Assembly (NCBI RefSeq): GCF_988242995.1 | Contig: NZ_OZ547043.1 | Length of the DNA stretch: 64,000 nucleotides | Direction: 5' to 3' (one strand) | Shown: in pieces, positions 1 to 34,569 of the stretch | How positions within the stretch are numbered: position 1 is the stretch's first letter | Layout of the letters: each line of letters begins with the position of its first letter | Notes under the pieces: model-generated | Told to the model about the DNA's origin: nothing | The model's input: only the letters and a program-made list of their open reading frames with translations | The model's database searches: none | Position numbers and translations under genes: made by a program

Positions 1-2238
1 ATAATTTGCGGAATTTTTCCGTTGCTGGTTTTGCCACAATTGCCTGGGACATTACCCCTTGCGTCTCTGACCGTCTTCGCCTGCGTACTGGTATTTATCC
101 CTTTTAAAACTGTCCGTTATATCGCGCTGACGTTGCTGTTTTTCGTTTGGGGCATATTAGCAGCAAAGCAAATTTTGTGGGCAGGAGAAACCTTAACTGG
201 CGCGACGCAGGATGCAATTGTTGAGATCACTGCTACTGGCGGTATGACCACTCATTACGGTCAAATTACTCATCTACAAGGTCGACGTATATTCCCTGCG
301 CCAGGCCTCGTGCTGTATGGCGAATATCTTCCGCAAGCGGTTTGTGCTGGACAACTGTGGTCAATGAAACTCAAAGTTCGTGCAGTTCATGGCCAATTTA
401 ATGATGGCGGCTTTGATAGCCAGCGTTATGCCATTGCCCAGCATCAGCCGCTGACCGGCCGCTTTCTGCAGGCAAGTGTCATTGAACCGAATTGTAGCCT
501 GCGTGCACAGTATCTGGCGTCATTACAAACAACGCTGCAACCCTATCCGTGGAATGCGGTTATTCTTGGTTTAGGTATGGGGGAACGGTTATCCGTTCCC
601 AAAGAAATCAAAAATATCATGCGCGATACTGGAACGGCGCATTTAATGGCGATATCGGGATTGCATATCGCTTTTGCGGCGTTGCTGGCTGCCGGACTCA
701 TTCGCAGTGGACAAATTTTTCTGCCTGGGCGCTGGATCCACTGGCAAATGCCATTAATTGGCGGAATCTGCTGTGCTGCTTTTTATGCCTGGCTGACGGG
801 AATGCAACCTCCTGCATTTCGTACCGTGGTGGCGCTTGCTACGTGGGGAATGCTTAAGTTAAGTGGGCGACAGTGGAGTGGCTGGGATGTATGGATATGT
901 TGTCTGGCGGCAATTTTGCTGATGGATCCTGTTGCCATTCTCTCGCAAAGTTTATGGCTCTCTGCCGCTGCGGTCGCGGCACTGATTTTTTGGTATCAGT
1001 GGTTTCCCTGTCCGGAGTGGCAACTGCCGCCGGTATTGCGCGCGGTTGTTTCCCTCATCCATCTGCAGCTGGGAATCACCCTCCTGCTTATGCCCGTGCA
1101 AATCGTCATATTTCATGGCATTAGTCTGACCTCGTTTATTGCGAATCTTTTTGCAATTCCCCTGGTGACATTTATCACGGTTCCGTTGATCCTCGCCGCG
1201 ATGGTTGCGCATTTAAGCGGGCCGTTAATTCTGGAGCAAGGGTTATGGTTTCTTGCCGACCGGTCTTTGGCTTTACTTTTCTGGGGGTTAAAGAGTTTGC
1301 CGGAAGGGTGGATCAACATTGCTGAACGTTGGCAATGGCTAACATTTTCCCCATGGTTCTTACTGGTGGTATGGCGATTAAACGCCTGGCGAACGTTGCC
1401 AGCAATGTGTGTGGCTGTAGGCTTGCTGATGTGCTGGCCGCTGTGGCAAAAACCTCGACCTGACGAGTGGCAAGTGTACATGCTTGATGTCGGGCAAGGG
1501 CTGGCAATGGTCATTGCGCGAAACGGCAAAGCGATTCTCTATGACACGGGGCTGGCCTGGCCCGAAGGGGATAGTGGGCAACAACTGATTATCCCCTGGC
1601 TCCACTGGCATAATCTTGAACCGGAAGGCGTTATTCTGAGTCATGAACATCTGGATCACCGGGGAGGGCTGGACTCAATATTGCATACATGGCCGATGTT
1701 ATGGATAAGAAGTCCGTTAAACTGGGAACATCATCAGCCCTGTGTGCGTGGCGAAGCGTGGCAATGGCAAGGATTGCGTTTCAGCGCGCACTGGCCTTTA
1801 CAAGGTAGCAACGATAAAGGAAATAACCATTCCTGTGTGGTTAAGATTGATGACGGGACGAATAGCATTCTTCTAACCGGTGATATTGAAGCCCCCGCTG
1901 AACAAAAGATGCTAAGCCGTTACTGGCAGCAAATGCAGGCAACATTACTTCAGGTACCTCACCATGGCAGTAATACCTCATCATCGTTGCCATTAATTCA
2001 GCGAGTGAATGGAAAAGTGGCACTCGCATCGGCATCGCGCTATAACGCATGGCGACTGCCCTCAAGCAAAGTTAAACATCGCTATCAACAACAGGGTTAT
2101 AAGTGGCTTGATACTCCTCATCAGGGGCAAATAACGGTCAATTTTTCAGCGCAAGGATGGCGGATTAGCAGCCTCAGGGAGCAAATTTTACCTCGTTGGT
2201 ATCATCAGTGGTTTGGCGTGCCAGTGGATAACGGGTAG
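1..2238 (+). CDS. ycaI: ComEC/Rec2-family inner-membrane protein YcaI, 5' end cut by window edge
   Basis: Open frame from base 1 to stop at 2236-2238; polytopic hydrophobic N-terminal part then metallo-beta-lactamase-like motif SHEHLDHRGG; lies directly upstream of msbA. Confidence 0.9.
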   Translation: MICGIFPLLVLPQLPGTLPLASLTVFACVLVFIPFKTVRYIALTLLFFVWGILAAKQILWAGETLTGATQDAIVEITATGGMTTHYGQITHLQGRRIFPAPGLVLYGEYLPQAVCAGQLWSMKLKVRAVHGQFNDGGFDSQRYAIAQHQPLTGRFLQASVIEPNCSLRAQYLASLQTTLQPYPWNAVILGLGMGERLSVPKEIKNIMRDTGTAHLMAISGLHIAFAALLAAGLIRSGQIFLPGRWIHWQMPLIGGICCAAFYAWLTGMQPPAFRTVVALATWGMLKLSGRQWSGWDVWICCLAAILLMDPVAILSQSLWLSAAAVAALIFWYQWFPCPEWQLPPVLRAVVSLIHLQLGITLLLMPVQIVIFHGISLTSFIANLFAIPLVTFITVPLILAAMVAHLSGPLILEQGLWFLADRSLALLFWGLKSLPEGWINIAERWQWLTFSPWFLLVVWRLNAWRTLPAMCVAVGLLMCWPLWQKPRPDEWQVYMLDVGQGLAMVIARNGKAILYDTGLAWPEGDSGQQLIIPWLHWHNLEPEGVILSHEHLDHRGGLDSILHTWPMLWIRSPLNWEHHQPCVRGEAWQWQGLRFSAHWPLQGSNDKGNNHSCVVKIDDGTNSILLTGDIEAPAEQKMLSRYWQQMQATLLQVPHHGSNTSSSLPLIQRVNGKVALASASRYNAWRLPSSKVKHRYQQQGYKWLDTPHQGQITVNFSAQGWRISSLREQILPRWYHQWFGVPVDNG

Positions 2239-2274
2239 AATATGCGGCTATTTCAACAAATGCTGGTTTTTTGA

Positions 2275-4023
2275 ATGCATAACGACAAAGATCTCTCTAC
2301 GTGGCAGACGTTCCGCCGACTGTGGCCAACCATTGCGCCTTTTAAAGCGGGTCTGATCGTGGCGGGCGTAGCGTTAATCCTCAACGCAGCCAGCGATACC
2401 TTCATGTTATCGCTCCTTAAGCCACTTCTTGATGATGGCTTTGGTAAAACAGATCGCTCCGTGCTGGTGTGGATGCCGCTGGTGGTGATCGGGCTAATGA
2501 TTTTACGTGGTATCACCAGCTATGTCTCCAGCTACTGTATCTCCTGGGTATCAGGAAAGGTGGTAATGACCATGCGTCGCCGCCTGTTTGGTCACATGAT
2601 GGGAATGCCAGTTTCATTCTTTGACAAACAGTCAACGGGTACGCTGTTGTCACGTATCACCTACGATTCCGAACAGGTTGCTTCTTCTTCTTCCGGCGCA
2701 CTGATTACTGTTGTGCGTGAAGGTGCGTCGATCATCGGCCTGTTCATCATGATGTTCTATTACAGCTGGCAACTGTCGATCATTTTGATTGTGCTGGCAC
2801 CGATTGTTTCGATTGCGATTCGCGTTGTATCGAAGCGTTTTCGTAACATCAGTAAAAACATGCAGAACACCATGGGGCAGGTGACCACCAGCGCAGAACA
2901 AATGCTGAAGGGCCACAAAGAAGTATTGATTTTCGGTGGTCAGGAAGTGGAAACGAAACGCTTCGATAAAGTCAGTAACCGAATGCGTCTTCAGGGGATG
3001 AAAATGGTTTCAGCCTCTTCCATCTCTGATCCGATCATTCAGCTGATCGCCTCTTTGGCGCTGGCGTTTGTTCTGTATGCGGCGAGCTTCCCAAGTGTCA
3101 TGGATAGCCTGACTGCCGGTACGATTACCGTTGTTTTCTCTTCAATGATTGCACTGATGCGTCCGCTGAAATCGCTGACCAACGTTAACGCCCAGTTCCA
3201 GCGCGGTATGGCGGCTTGTCAGACGCTGTTTACCATTCTGGACAGTGAGCAGGAGAAAGACGAAGGTAAGCGCGTGATCGAGCGTGCGACTGGCGACGTG
3301 GAATTCCGCAATGTCACCTTTACTTATCCGGGACGTGACGTGCCCGCATTGCGTAACATCAACCTGAAAATTCCGGCAGGGAAGACGGTTGCTCTGGTTG
3401 GACGCTCTGGTTCAGGTAAATCAACCATCGCCAGCCTAATCACACGTTTTTACGATATTGATGAAGGCGAAATCCTGATGGATGGTCACGATCTGCGCGA
3501 GTATACCCTGGCGTCGTTACGTAACCAGGTTGCTCTGGTGTCGCAGAATGTCCATCTGTTTAACGATACGGTTGCCAACAACATTGCTTACGCACGGACT
3601 GAACAGTACAGCCGTGAGCAAATTGAAGAAGCGGCGCGTATGGCCTACGCCATGGACTTCATCAATAAGATGGATAACGGTCTCGATACAGTGATTGGTG
3701 AAAACGGCGTGCTGCTCTCTGGCGGTCAGCGTCAGCGTATTGCCATCGCTCGAGCCTTGTTGCGTGATAGCCCGATTCTGATTCTGGACGAAGCTACCTC
3801 GGCGCTGGATACCGAATCTGAACGTGCGATTCAGGCTGCACTGGATGAGTTGCAGAAAAACCGTACCTCTCTGGTGATTGCCCACCGCTTGTCTACCATT
3901 GAAAAGGCAGACGAAATCGTGGTCGTCGAGGATGGTGTCATTGTGGAACGCGGTACGCATAACGATTTGCTTGAGCACCGTGGCGTTTACGCGCAACTTC
4001 ACAAAATGCAGTTTGGCCAATGA
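2275..4023 (+). CDS. msbA: Lipid A/LPS flippase, ABC exporter MsbA
   Basis: 582 aa; N-terminal TM domain; Walker [13 protein letters not shown] signature [15 protein letters not shown], Walker [13 protein letters not shown]; stop overlaps lpxK start (ATGA). Confidence 0.97.
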
Positions 4024-5006
4024 TCGAAAAAATCTGGTCTGGTGAATCCCCTTTGTGGCGGCTATTGCTGCCACTCTCCTGGTTGTATGGCCTGGTGAGT
4101 GGCGCGATCCGTCTTTGCTATAAACTAAAACTGAAGCGCGCCTGGCGTGCCCCCGTACCGGTTGTCGTGGTTGGTAATCTCACCGCAGGCGGCAACGGAA
4201 AAACCCCGGTCGTTGTCTGGCTGGTGGAACAGTTGCAACAGCGCGGTATTCGCGTGGGGGTCGTATCGCGGGGATATGGTGGTAAGGCTGAATCTTATCC
4301 GCTGTTATTGTCGGCAGATACCACCACAGCACAGGCGGGTGATGAACCTGTGTTGATTTATCAACGCACTGGCGCGCCCGTTGCGGTTTCTCCCGTGCGT
4401 TCTGATGCGGTAAAAGCCATTCTGGCGCAACGCCCTGATGTGCAGATCATCGTAACCGACGACGGTTTACAGCATTACCGTCTGGCGCGTGATGTGGAAA
4501 TTGTCGTTATTGATGGTGTGCGTCGCTTTGGCAATGGCTGGTGGTTGCCGGCGGGGCCAATGCGTGAGCGAGCGGGGCGCTTAAAGTCGGTTGATGCGGT
4601 AATCGTCAACGGCGGTGTCCCCCGCAGCGGTGAAATCCCCATGCATCTGCTGCCGGGTCAGGCGGTGAATTTACGTACCGGTACGCGTTGTGACGTTGCT
4701 CAGCTTGAACATGTAGTGGCGATGGCGGGGATTGGACATCCGCCGCGCTTTTTTGCCACGCTGAAGATGTGCGGCGTACAACCGGAAAAATGTGTACCGC
4801 TGGCCGATCATCAGTCTTTGAACCATGCGGATGTCAGCGCGTTGGTAAACGCCGGGCAAACGCTGGTAATGACTGAAAAAGATGCGGTGAAATGCCGGGC
4901 CTTTGCAGAAGAAAATTGGTGGTATTTGCCTGTAGACGCACAGCTTTCAGGTGATGAACCAGCGAAACTGCTTGCGCAACTAACCTCGCTGGCTTCTGGC
5001 AACTAG
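4020..5006 (+). CDS. lpxK: Tetraacyldisaccharide 4'-kinase LpxK
   Basis: 328 aa; P-loop [15 protein letters not shown]; translationally coupled to msbA. Confidence 0.96.
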
Positions 5007-7405: not shown

Positions 7406-8299
7406 ATGGAACAGCTGCGTGCCGAATTAAGCCATTTACTGGGCGAAAAACTCAGTCGTATTGAGTGCGTCAATGAAAAAGCGGATACGGCGTTGTGGGC
7501 TTTGTATGACAGCCAGGGAAACCCAATGCCGTTAATGGCAAGAAGCTTTAGTACGCCCGGAAAAGCCCGACAACTGGCATGGAAAACCACCATGCTGGCA
7601 AGAAGTGGAACTGTCCGTATGCCGACTATTTATGGTGTGATGACGCATGAAGAACACCCCGGCCCCGATGTCCTGCTACTGGAGCGGATGCGTGGTGTTT
7701 CGGTGGAGGCACCAGCCCGAACACCAGAACGCTGGGAACAGCTCAAAGATCAAATCGTTGAAGCCTTACTGGCCTGGCACCGTCAGGACAGTCGCGGTTG
7801 CGTCGGCGCGGTCGACAATACTCAGGAAAATTTCTGGCCCTCATGGTACCGGCAACATGTTGAAGTGCTATGGACCACGCTCAATCAGTTCAATAACACC
7901 GGTCTAACGATGCAGGATAAGCGGATCCTGTTTCGTACTCGCGAATGTCTCCCGGCATTATTTGAAGGCTTTAACGACAATTGTGTGCTGATTCACGGTA
8001 ACTTCTGTTTACGCAGCATGCTGAAAGATTCGCGCAGCGATCAGTTACTGGCGATGGTCGGGCCGGGACTAATGCTTTGGGCACCGCGAGAATACGAACT
8101 GTTCCGACTAATGGATAATTCTCTGGCGGAAGATTTGCTCTGGAGTTACCTGCAACGCGCGCCAGTGGCGGAGTCGTTCATCTGGCGGCGTTGGTTGTAT
8201 GTGTTATGGGATGAAGTTGCGCAACTGGTTAATACCGGACGATTTAGTCGGCGCAACTTCGATCTGGCATCAAAATCACTCTTGCCGTGGCTCGCCTGA
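7406..8299 (+). CDS. ycbJ: Putative phosphotransferase/kinase-like protein YcbJ
   Basis: 297 aa ORF; recognised as YcbJ; 3' end overlaps convergent elyC by 24 bp. Confidence 0.88.
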   Translation: MEQLRAELSHLLGEKLSRIECVNEKADTALWALYDSQGNPMPLMARSFSTPGKARQLAWKTTMLARSGTVRMPTIYGVMTHEEHPGPDVLLLERMRGVSVEAPARTPERWEQLKDQIVEALLAWHRQDSRGCVGAVDNTQENFWPSWYRQHVEVLWTTLNQFNNTGLTMQDKRILFRTRECLPALFEGFNDNCVLIHGNFCLRSMLKDSRSDQLLAMVGPGLMLWAPREYELFRLMDNSLAEDLLWSYLQRAPVAESFIWRRWLYVLWDEVAQLVNTGRFSRRNFDLASKSLLPWLA

Positions 8300-9055
8300 C
8301 GAACTTTTTAGCCACTGCCAGATGCGGCCAAGCGTTTCATAGCCAACACGATCGCTATGCATCAACCAGACTGGAGAAGGGATTGCCCGTTCCCACGGGT
8401 TAAGCGGCGAGTCGATGGCCAACTGATTCGCCGGGGCTGGCAGCGGATTTAACCCTTCCTGCTGAAAAAAGATCATCGCCCGCGGCAAATGAGACGCGGA
8501 TGTCACCAGCAGGAAAGGGGCGTCACCAATTGCCTGTTTCACTGCCGCAGCTTCTTCTTCGGTATCTTTTGGCAAATCCAGAGTGATAATTTGCTCGCGC
8601 GGCACGCCCAGCGATTGCGCAACTCGGGCACCTACTTCGGCTGTACTCACCGTATTGGTTTTTGCTACGCCTCCCGTGAAGATCAGTTTTGATCCCGGAT
8701 TTTCGCGCCATAAGCGAATACCTTCATTCAGGCGGGGCAGACTGTTATTGATTAAATTCGAGCTTGGTGCCCACTGCGGGTTCCAGGTATAACCACCTCC
8801 GAGCACCACGATATAGTCCACTTTTTGCGAATTATTCCATGTCGGATAGGTGCTTTCGATGGGACGCAGCAGGCGGTCGGCTACCGGTTGCAAACTCAAT
8901 AACAAGAGCGCCAGCCACCCAATGCTAATAAAAATCTTCCCGGTTTTTTGAAAACGGCTAAACCACAGCAGCGCCAGGCCAGCGCCAATAATCAACAACA
9001 TTAGCGGAAGTGGCAGCAACATATTGCCAATCACTTTTTTCAGTGTAAAAAGCAT
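8276..9055 (-). CDS. elyC: Envelope biogenesis factor ElyC (DUF218 family)
   Basis: 259 aa; N-terminal TM helices then DUF218-type domain; ATG (minus strand) at 9055-9053. Confidence 0.92.
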   Translation of the reverse strand: MLFTLKKVIGNMLLPLPLMLLIIGAGLALLWFSRFQKTGKIFISIGWLALLLLSLQPVADRLLRPIESTYPTWNNSQKVDYIVVLGGGYTWNPQWAPSSNLINNSLPRLNEGIRLWRENPGSKLIFTGGVAKTNTVSTAEVGARVAQSLGVPREQIITLDLPKDTEEEAAAVKQAIGDAPFLLVTSASHLPRAMIFFQQEGLNPLPAPANQLAIDSPLNPWERAIPSPVWLMHSDRVGYETLGRIWQWLKSSSGEPRQE

Positions 9056-9065
9056 CCTTTCTGGT
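9055..9065. repeat. Target-site duplication (left copy) of IS4, tcctttctggt
   Basis: Identical 11-mer directly abuts both IS4 ends (9055-9065 and 10492-10502); an extra flanking a makes it arguably 12 bp. Confidence 0.85.
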
Positions 9066-9083
9066 TAATGCCGATCAGTTAAG
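9066..9083. repeat. IS4 left terminal inverted repeat
   Basis: taatgccgatcagttaag; reverse complement of right end with 2 mismatches. Confidence 0.85.
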
Positions 9084-9149
9084 GATCAGTTGACCGATCC
9101 AGTGGCTGTGTAAGAATCCGGAAACGCTCACTTGTTTCCGGATTTTTTT

Positions 9150-10478
9150 ATGCACATTGGACAGGCTCTTGATCTGGTATCCCGTTACGATTCTCTGCGT
9201 AACCCACTGACTTCTCTGGGGGATTACCTCGACCCCGAACTCATCTCTCGTTGCCTTGCCGAATCAGGTACTGTAACGCTACGCAAGCGCCGTCTTCCCC
9301 TCGAAATGATGGTCTGGTGTATTGTTGGCATGGCGCTTGAGCGTAAAGAACCTCTTCACCAGATTGTGAATCGCCTGGACATCATGCTGCCGGGCAATCG
9401 CCCCTTCGTTGCCCCCAGTGCCGTTATTCAGGCCCGCCAGCGCCTGGGAAGTGAGGCTGTCCGCCGCGTGTTCACGAAAACAGCGCAGCTCTGGCATAAC
9501 GCCACGCCGCATCCGCACTGGTGCGGCCTGACCCTGCTGGCCATCGATGGTGTGTTCTGGCGCACACCGGATACACCAGAGAACGATGCAGCCTTCCCCC
9601 GCCAGACACATGCCGGGAACCCGGCGCTCTACCCGCAGGTCAAAATGGTCTGCCAGATGGAACTGACCAGCCATCTGCTGACGGCTGCAGCCTTCGGCAC
9701 GATGAAGAACAGCGAAAATGAGCTTGCTGAGCAACTTATAGAACAAACCGGCGATAACACTCTGACGTTAATGGATAAAGGTTATTACTCACTGGGACTG
9801 TTAAATGCCTGGAGCCTGGCGGGAGAACACCGCCACTGGATGATACCTCTCAGAAAGGGAGCGCAATATGAAGAGATCAGAAAACTGGGTAAAGGCGATC
9901 ATCTGGTGAAGCTGAAAACCAGCCCGCAGGCACGAAAAAAGTGGCCGGGACTGGGAAATGAAGTGACTGCCCGCCTGCTGACCGTGACGCGCAAAGGAAA
10001 AGTCTGCCATCTGCTGACGTCGATGACGGACGCCATGCGCTTCCCCGGAGGAGAAATGGGGGATCTGTACAGTCATCGCTGGGAAATCGAACTGGGATAC
10101 AGGGAGATAAAACAGACGATGCAACGGAGCAGGCTGACGCTGAGAAGTAAAAAGCCGGAGCTTGTGGAGCAAGAGCTGTGGGGTGTCTTACTGGCTTATA
10201 ATCTGGTGAGATATCAGATGATTAAAATGGCGGAACATCTGAAAGGTTACTGGCCGAATCAACTGAGTTTCTCAGAATCATGCGGAATGGTGATGAGAAT
10301 GCTGATGACATTGCAGGGCGCTTCACCGGGACGTATACCGGAGCTGATGCGCGATCTTGCAAGTATGGGACAACTTGTGAAATTACCGACAAGAAGGGAA
10401 AGGGCCTTCCCGAGAGTGGTAAAGGAGAGGCCCTGGAAATACCCCACAGCCCCGAAAAAGAGCCAGTCAGTTGCTTAA
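9150..10478 (+). CDS. insG: IS4 transposase (InsG-like, DDE family)
   Basis: 442 aa from ATG at 9150 (track ORF starts 6 codons earlier at an alternative TTG); translation matches IS4 transposase; stop lies inside right IR. Confidence 0.93.
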
Positions 10479-10491
10479 CTGACTGGCATTA
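10474..10491. repeat. IS4 right terminal inverted repeat
   Basis: cttaactgactggcatta. Confidence 0.85.
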
Positions 10492-10502
10492 TCCTTTCTG
10501 GT
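10492..10502. repeat. Target-site duplication (right copy) of IS4, tcctttctggt
   Basis: Exact repeat of 9055-9065. Confidence 0.85.
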
Positions 10503-10627
10503 TCCTTTTTTAACCATATAGCAAGGGATCGCCAGCGATATTACACCAGACGGGTTCATTCTCGCCGTGGCTGTGACAAAATAGCGTCTTTATCAGAAAA
10601 CGTCTTAGCCAACCGGTGGAGAAAGCA

Positions 10628-11413
10628 ATGCAGGATCGCAATTTTGATGATATTGCGGAAAAGTTTTCCCGTAACATTTACGGCACCACCAAAGGGCAGC
10701 TTCGACAGGCTATTCTGTGGCAGGATCTCGATCGCGTGCTGGCGGAAATGGGCCCGCAAAAACTGCGTGTGCTGGATGCTGGCGGTGGAGAAGGGCAGAC
10801 CGCAATCAAAATGGCTGAGCGCGGGCATCAGGTCATTTTATGCGATCTTTCTGCGCAGATGATCGACCGCGCAAAACAGGCGGCAGAAGCAAAAGGTGTG
10901 AGCGACAACATGCAATTTATACATTGCGCCGCTCAGGATGTTGCTTCGCATTTGGAAACGCCCGTTGATCTGATATTGTTCCATGCGGTGCTCGAGTGGG
11001 TGGCCGATCCCCGCAGCGTATTACAGACCCTGTGGTCAGTGTTGCGTCCAGGCGGTGTGTTGTCGTTAATGTTCTACAATGCGCACGGCTTGCTGATGCA
11101 TAACATGGTCGCCGGGAATTTTGATTACGTGCAGGCGGGAATGCCGAAAAAGAAAAAACGGACGCTTTCGCCAGATTATCCACGCGACCCGGCGCAGGTT
11201 TATCTGTGGCTGGAAGAAGCTGGTTGGCAAATTATGGGTAAGACAGGCGTTCGCGTGTTTCATGATTATCTGCGCGAGAAGCACCAGCAGCGCGACTGCT
11301 ATGAAGCATTACTTGAATTAGAAACGCGTTATTGCCGTCAGGAACCGTATATTACCCTGGGGCGTTATATTCATGTCACCGCGCGCAAACCGCAGAGCAA
11401 GGATAAAGTATGA
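10628..11413 (+). CDS. cmoM: SAM-dependent methyltransferase CmoM (formerly SmtA)
   Basis: 261 aa from MQDRNFDD; methyltransferase motif VLDAGGGEG; stop overlaps mukF start. Confidence 0.93.
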
Positions 11414-34417: not shown

Positions 34418-34553
34418 ACTCTCTCCTTATAACCAATTGTTCTTTTTTTGTTAACATTGATAGCAATTCGGTCAGTCTGACAGAGGTGGCCCGCGAGTCG
34501 AAATGATTTATCTGAGGAAGAAAAGCCAAAAAAAGCATAAAAAAAGCGCAATA

Positions 34554-34569
34554 AGAAAACGTTTGCTAT
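34554..34569. promoter_or_regulatory. Candidate PurR box in pyrD upstream region
   Basis: agaaAAACGTTTgcta contains the central AAACGTTT core of the PurR operator consensus; about 85 bp upstream of pyrD ATG. Confidence 0.4.

Follow-up and report, generated by a model that had tools for sequence, protein, structure and literature searches.

The element considered here lies in a 64-kb stretch of DNA (hereafter 'the window', meaning the whole of the stretch that was analysed), in the spacer between two divergently transcribed genes. To its left, on the minus strand, is elyC (8276–9055), which encodes an envelope biogenesis factor and whose reading frame is intact, with 10 nt of native upstream sequence remaining before the element. 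To its right, on the plus strand, is cmoM (also termed smtA; 10628–11413), the first gene of the cmoM-mukFEB cluster, recognized from its reading frame and from the annotation of the empty locus. Between the two, at positions 9066–10491 on the plus strand, is a complete copy of IS4, 1426 bp in length. IS4 is the element on which the IS4 family, a family with DDE transposases, was founded, and the copy in the window is complete and undecayed. The element is already known, being a textbook IS4 and an ordinary copy; what is new is its location, a verified and lineage-specific site.

A base-by-base comparison shows that 1426 of the 1426 bases agree with those of the Escherichia coli K-12 MG1655 copy (insG), and the same 100% match over 1426 bp is found with many other E. 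coli copies. The K-12 copy (the single one in MG1655, beside nanX) has, with every base of the 1426 bp, the same inverted repeats, the same transposase and the same hairpins at its ends. In the window, the left terminal inverted repeat (IRL, 9066–9083, plus strand, TAATGCCGATCAGTTAAG) was located by an exact pattern match, and the right terminal inverted repeat (IRR, 10474–10491, minus strand, TAATGCCAGTCAGTTAAG when read on the reverse strand) agrees with it at 16 of 18 positions, the figure already given in a first-pass annotation of the sequence; the other two are mismatches. A search of the 64-kb window that tolerated three mismatches returned these two repeats as its sole matches (0.01 expected by chance). 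The IS4 subgroup, as delineated by De Palmenaer et al. (2008; PMC2266710), is characterized by ends of the form -AATR--------WTW and by a duplication of 10–13 bp, and the window element fits this description, as it does in size; within IRL, positions 2–5 (AATG) and 14–16 (TTA) agree with the consensus for the ends. The structural hallmarks of IS4 (identity and length, 18-bp imperfect inverted repeats, a single DDE reading frame and the length of the target-site duplication) are found in the window element.

Two features define the IS4 family, a transposase gene free of frameshifts and a Y-(2)-R-(3)-E-(6)-K signature (PMC2266710). In the window copy that signature was located in the translation at residues 307–321 (10068–10112, plus strand), and the transposase gene, insG, runs on the plus strand from an ATG at 9150 to a stop codon at 10478 (9150–10478), an uninterrupted frame of 442 codons plus the stop, as the earlier reading had described it. 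An alternative TTG start at 9132, six codons earlier, gives a protein of 448 residues (RefSeq and the mechanical list of open reading frames). Pfam recognizes two domains in the transposase: Nterm_IS4 (E 3e-33) and DDE_Tnp_1 (E 2.8e-31), the latter model covered over its full length. The putative catalytic residues, all on the plus strand, are D133 (9546–9548), D209 (9774–9776) and E314 (10089–10091), the two aspartates having been assigned by reading the peptides LAIDGV and LMDKGY, without alignment to a solved structure. Because the element is identical to the K-12 MG1655 IS4 at 1426 of 1426 positions, the transposase carries no substitution relative to the reference. The initial claim that the copy shows no decay holds throughout its length, and the inactivating substitutions that would have counted against it are absent.

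Both ends of the element contain predicted secondary structure that may bear on the expression of this gene. At the left, a stem-loop (9112–9149, plus strand) directly precedes the insG ATG, with 14-bp arms at 9112–9125 and 9134–9147, followed by a run of T residues up to the ATG. The RNA of the first 100 nt (9066–9165) is predicted to fold with an energy of -38.3 kcal/mol (z = -5.0), a stability reached by 0 of 200 shuffled sequences, and in that fold the start codon is paired. It is proposed that the 9112–9149 hairpin either stops incoming read-through transcripts or masks their start codon. At the right, a perfect 11-bp stem with a 4-nt loop (10462–10487) overlaps IRR as well as the insG stop codon and resembles a terminator on either strand; read along the minus strand, the stem is followed by TCTTTTTC (terminator scan and list of inverted repeats). 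The transposase genes of IS10 and IS50 are known to be shielded from outside transcription, and by analogy the hairpins at both IS4 ends would look like an insulation of the transposase gene of the same kind. A promoter-like site (TTGACC-16-AAGAAT with a TG extension, 9090–9117, plus strand) is a candidate for the transposase promoter and a weak lead; the promoter scan of IS4 gave this one site against 1.1 expected in shuffled sequence, which is chance level, and for that reason no transposase promoter is claimed. Transcripts from this candidate, weak lead as it is, would begin within the 9112–9147 hairpin. The same scan of IS4 returned no outward promoter directed toward elyC and no promoter-like site of any kind on the minus strand.

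The competence of the copy to transpose is supported indirectly, through its identity to copies that have moved. Eight of eight fetched E. coli IS4 copies, from the K-12 locus and six other loci, are identical to the window copy at 1426 of 1426 positions, and since the same sequence is found at six loci besides that of K-12, this exact variant has moved repeatedly. In mutation-accumulation lines, the single IS4 of an MG1655 derivative produced 8 new insertions, out of 758 by all elements (Lee et al. 2016; PMC5009759), from which it follows that IS4 is active, albeit rarely. Because the sequences are identical, the window copy should equal the K-12 copy in this respect. The phrase 'potentially active' is best read as a statement of competence at the level of sequence; expression and host factors also matter. 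It is possible, though doubtful, that the copy is intact yet effectively silent, with its structure and position holding transposase at too low a level, so that even this phrase would overstate the case. Such a reading draws on the strong hairpin that crosses the start region, the promoter-like match at chance level, the rarity with which IS4 transposes (8 of 758 new insertions; PMC5009759) and a median copy number of 1. The same features, however, are present in every IS4 copy, including the K-12 one that moves (PMC5009759), and the identical sequence is established at six other loci; a copy as competent as that of K-12 is the preferred reading.

The element is flanked by two copies of an 11-bp sequence, TCCTTTCTGGT, at 9055–9065 on the left and 10492–10502 on the right, which match perfectly and correspond to a single copy at the empty site. 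The left copy opens with base 9055, at which the minus-strand start codon of elyC also begins. A repeat finder displays a visible repeat of 13 nt (9054–9066 and 10491–10503), because the terminal A and T of IS4 lengthen the match by chance; with the canonical ends the duplication is 11 bp. In the E. coli genome CFSAN018748 the empty elyC-cmoM spacer reads AAAAAGCATCCTTTCTGGTTCCTTTTTT, and the 11-mer is present in it once. When 1426 + 11 bp are removed from the window, this empty spacer is reproduced exactly, and removal of 8–10 or of 12–14 bp in place of the 11 fails to do so. In the window, the junction of this spacer with IS4 reads GCATCCTTTCTGGTTAATGCCGATCAG. As the 11-mer is single at empty sites, the direct repeat was created by the insertion; a pre-existing direct repeat, considered as an alternative, is ruled out, and the perfect duplication asserted at the outset is borne out with it.

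The best account is that IS4 entered the 135-bp spacer between the divergent elyC and cmoM genes by ordinary transposition, in which the transposase would make cuts staggered by 11 bp in the target, and the repair of these would yield the TCCTTTCTGGT duplication. Within the IS4 family, IS10 and IS50 are the members that have been studied mechanistically. By analogy, cut-and-paste chemistry may be supposed for IS4, although we know of no demonstration of hairpin-intermediate chemistry for IS4 itself. The elements of Tn10 and Tn5 (IS10 and IS50, respectively) resemble IS4 in having one reading frame without a frameshift, which encodes a DDE transposase bearing the YREK signature, in their short inverted repeats and in duplicating about one helical turn of target (PMC2266710). 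They differ from it in belonging to different subgroups, in their 9-bp duplications, in their CT/CW ends and in their target consensus (PMC2266710).

An artefact of assembly, in which a repeat was collapsed or misplaced into the elyC-cmoM spacer, is scarcely credible as the source of the IS4 found here. The insertion is seen in no other genome, as might be expected of an artefact, but it has exact IS termini, a perfect duplication of 11 bp that empty sites contain only once, and a position that fits the symmetry of IS4 targets (p ~0.003 or less). The candidate was rejected on the ground that a misassembly would create no target-site duplication.

The occupancy of the site across the species was surveyed with a query comprising IS4 and 1 kb on either side, against a database of 5,426 complete E. 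coli genomes. The query matched 5,425 of these, with at most 58% of it covered in each: the flanks are joined over 1,989 bp and there is no IS4. A filled elyC-cmoM site was thus found in 0 of 5,426 complete genomes, and the exact left junction in 0 metagenome contigs. An old ancestral copy, as a further candidate, is ruled out by the empty site in all of the other genomes. Over 24.5 kb the closest genome is that of E. coli NY1601, isolated from chicken faeces, in which the site is empty; aligned with positions 4212–34479 of the window, with IS4 removed, it differs by 2 SNPs in 28,831 bp. The NY1601 chromosome is without any IS4, since the IS4-containing query matched a single place there. The insertion postdates the ancestor that the two genomes share in this segment. 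If clock rates are assumed to lie between 1e-7 and 1e-6 per site and year, that ancestor is placed roughly 35–350 years back (Poisson limits of a few years and ~1,250), an age in years that depends on the 2 SNPs and on the assumed rates. The insertion is lineage-specific and recent, of the order of decades to centuries by this estimate, in keeping with the recent transposition first suggested from the intact ends and perfect duplication.

Two routes to the present arrangement were considered, transposition in this lineage and importation. The insertion might have arisen in another strain and come in with its flanking DNA by homologous recombination, since the identity of the window to NY1601 is mosaic and recombination tracts therefore cross the region. 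This is quite improbable, however: no donor is found among the 5,426 complete genomes or the metagenome contigs, and the mosaic boundaries (at ~4211 and ~34480) lie kilobases away from IS4. The event would be recent by either route, and transposition in the lineage of the window is the reading retained here.

The mosaic itself is composed of a segment with 79 SNPs relative to NY1601 (1–4211), the segment with 2 SNPs (4212–34479) and a segment with ~1% divergence that makes up the last 29 kb (34555–64000). At ~34480–34554 the window is without the ~7-kb elfADCG-ycbUVF fimbrial operon, which NY1601 and most of the genomes listed have between ssuE and pyrD. One of the genomes listed, NZ_OZ547136.1, matches the window without a break at ~34480–34554 and appears to be without the elfADCG-ycbUVF operon too.

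The statement that IS4 occurs in few copies per genome stands as a rule: it was found in 2,686 of the 5,426 E. coli genomes, the median being 1 place per genome and the highest number 32, with 184 of the places on plasmids. The site beside nanX in K-12 is common to many strains (it accounts for three of the eight E. coli copies fetched, and for 12 of all the loci collected), whereas the window site is unique among 5,426. The K-12 copy differs from that of the window in its location (beside nanX rather than in the elyC-cmoM spacer) and in its duplication, which is 12 bp (CAGAACCAAGAT) as compared with the 11 bp of TCCTTTCTGGT; the two targets are alike in that each has the pattern AAA-N20-TTT centred on the duplication. 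Other E. coli copies (at mdh/degS, at the 3' end of bamD, at adhE/tdk, at yhjB/treF, at a prophage capsid/FI locus and within yicI) are the same element, with target-site duplications of 11–14 bp, and their targets are symmetric with A/T-rich flanks, as at the window site.

The target of IS4, as reported by Mayaux et al. in 1984 and in ISfinder, is a pseudo-palindrome of the form AAA-N20-TTT with duplications of 11–13 bp, a consensus of the 1980s that reportedly rests on three sites. The AAA-N20-TTT consensus is not stated in the papers searched, and the preference was re-derived from data. The eight fetched E. coli copies, together with those of K-12 and of the window, gave 8 unique full sites, in all of which the elements are identical at 1426 of 1426 positions and the duplications are 11–14 bp long. 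AAA-N20-TTT is centred within 1.5 nt of the centre of the duplication in five of the eight, K-12 and the window included, and 2 of the remaining 3 have the same A- and T-runs at a slightly different spacing; a centred AAA-N20-TTT occurs at only 0.3% of the possible 11-bp targets in the window. At the site itself, the left arm outside the duplication (9047–9054) consists of the A-run AAAAA (9047–9051) and GCA, and the right arm (10503–10511) of TCC and the T-run TTTTTT (10506–10511). Of 13 positions placed symmetrically about the centre of the duplication, 9 are complementary, against a background mean of 3.3, and 9 or more are reached at 0.03% of random positions.

A second and larger set was assembled from left flanks only, with species-representative genomes and metagenomes added by scanning for the IS4 left end, and comprises 68 unique flanks from which the window was excluded. 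Its profile has A at position -18 in 88% of flanks, within an A-run from -20 to -16, a C-rich stretch between -14 and -9, and a preference for G at two positions, -4 (74%) and -1 (78%); for the other flank, mirror symmetry was assumed. The window flank retains the A-run (-19 to -16) and the C residues at -10 and -9, and has T rather than the preferred G at both -1 and -4. Its score against the profile is 1.7, as compared with a median of 10.6, and 6 of the 68 real sites score lower; set against background positions it still ranks in the top 2%, and the other flank ranks in the top 1.5%. The window target is a genuine but below-average IS4 site, without the G/C bases that adjoin the ends at most sites, and this agrees with a nearly universal E. 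coli sequence having been hit only here. The strong target preference attributed to IS4 is upheld in the sense of a symmetric arrangement of A-run, palindrome and T-run, and a comparison of the 11-bp target and its adjacent bases with other IS4 sites, advised at the same time, finds that the window site fits it, with AAA-N20-TTT in place, yet scores low.

Most of the IS4 sites examined are GC-rich hairpins with A- and T-runs at the 3' ends of genes, with predicted energies of -15 to -21 kcal/mol; examples are mdh/degS, the 3' end of bamD, adhE/tdk and the prophage capsid gene, as well as one locus on a metagenome contig. Such sites resemble intrinsic terminators, often between convergent genes, with the duplication over the loop and inner stem. 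The other E. coli targets named above are mostly strong GC-rich hairpins of this 3'-end type, whereas that of the window lies directly beside a start codon, in a divergent promoter region, and its predicted hairpin is weak (-6.3 kcal/mol). It might be that IS4 is targeted by structure and symmetry, to palindromes of A-run, GC-hairpin and T-run that are mostly terminators, and that the window copy is off-type and has persisted through severing elyC from its promoter, as a selected knock-down rather than as a neutral insertion. As a whole that reading is improbable; ordinary transposition into a below-average site remains the preferred account.

Several observations were made in passing on the sequences collected for the flank set. 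The scan of species-representative genomes for the IS4 left end gave no match in E. coli; it matched Kosakonia oryziphila, Photorhabdus khanii and a 265-bp Methylobacterium contig, which are usable as half-sites only. In Kosakonia oryziphila REICA_142, 16 contigs end in the IS4 left end, without a difference in the 30 nt that were searched for, and have flanks that are all different, most of them with an A-run ~16–20 nt from the IS4 end; this indicates an expansion of IS4 outside Escherichia that has fragmented the draft assembly. The 265-bp contig, from Methylobacterium mesophilicum NBRC 15688, contains at positions 1–175 the IS4 left end with the exact K-12 flank (ACACCAGAACCAAGAT), and is most likely a contamination of that assembly with E. 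coli K-12. Five metagenome contigs have unrelated sequences on either side of IS4, without a target duplication; the left flank of one is the K-12 site and the right flank of another is the yicI site. Such unmatched flanks may reflect either recombination between IS4 copies or chimeric assembly.

The position of the insertion relative to elyC is a point that the first-pass annotation did not raise. The elyC ATG is the complement of 9053–9055, and the duplication begins at its first base. The insertion begins one base from this ATG and would cut elyC off from its promoter, and the native leader that is left is ACCAGAAAGG (10 nt); the native sequence farther upstream, TTGCTATATGGTTAAAAAAGGA, is now displaced by 1,437 bp. 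The displaced region presumably carries the elyC promoter and a better-spaced AAGGA ribosome-binding site, and transcripts from it would run into the terminator-like hairpin of the minus strand before they had covered more than ~40 nt of IS4. Because that promoter would lie 1.4 kb away, beyond terminator-like hairpins, and IS4 has no promoter-like site on the minus strand, a reduced expression of elyC is likely: the gene has probably been severed from its promoter and its expression lowered. On the other side, the native 125 nt that separate the target from the cmoM start codon (10503–10627) are retained in full upstream of cmoM-mukFEB, with the right copy of the duplication before them.

The account as a whole, namely that the window contains a complete and undecayed IS4 which came by a recent and ordinary transposition into the elyC-cmoM spacer and which should be as competent as the K-12 copy, is very probably correct. 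As the copy is identical to the reference, it changes little in biology at large. Its value is more local: since none of the other complete genomes among 5,426 has the insertion, it can serve as a clean marker of the strain, and the few IS4 insertion sites on record are joined by a further verified target whose empty site is known. The 68 pooled flanks, in turn, define the IS4 target empirically, and more sharply than the three-site consensus of the 1980s. For the source strain itself, a lower expression of elyC could alter the envelope phenotype; mutants of elyC are reported to be affected in growth or lysis at ~21 °C.
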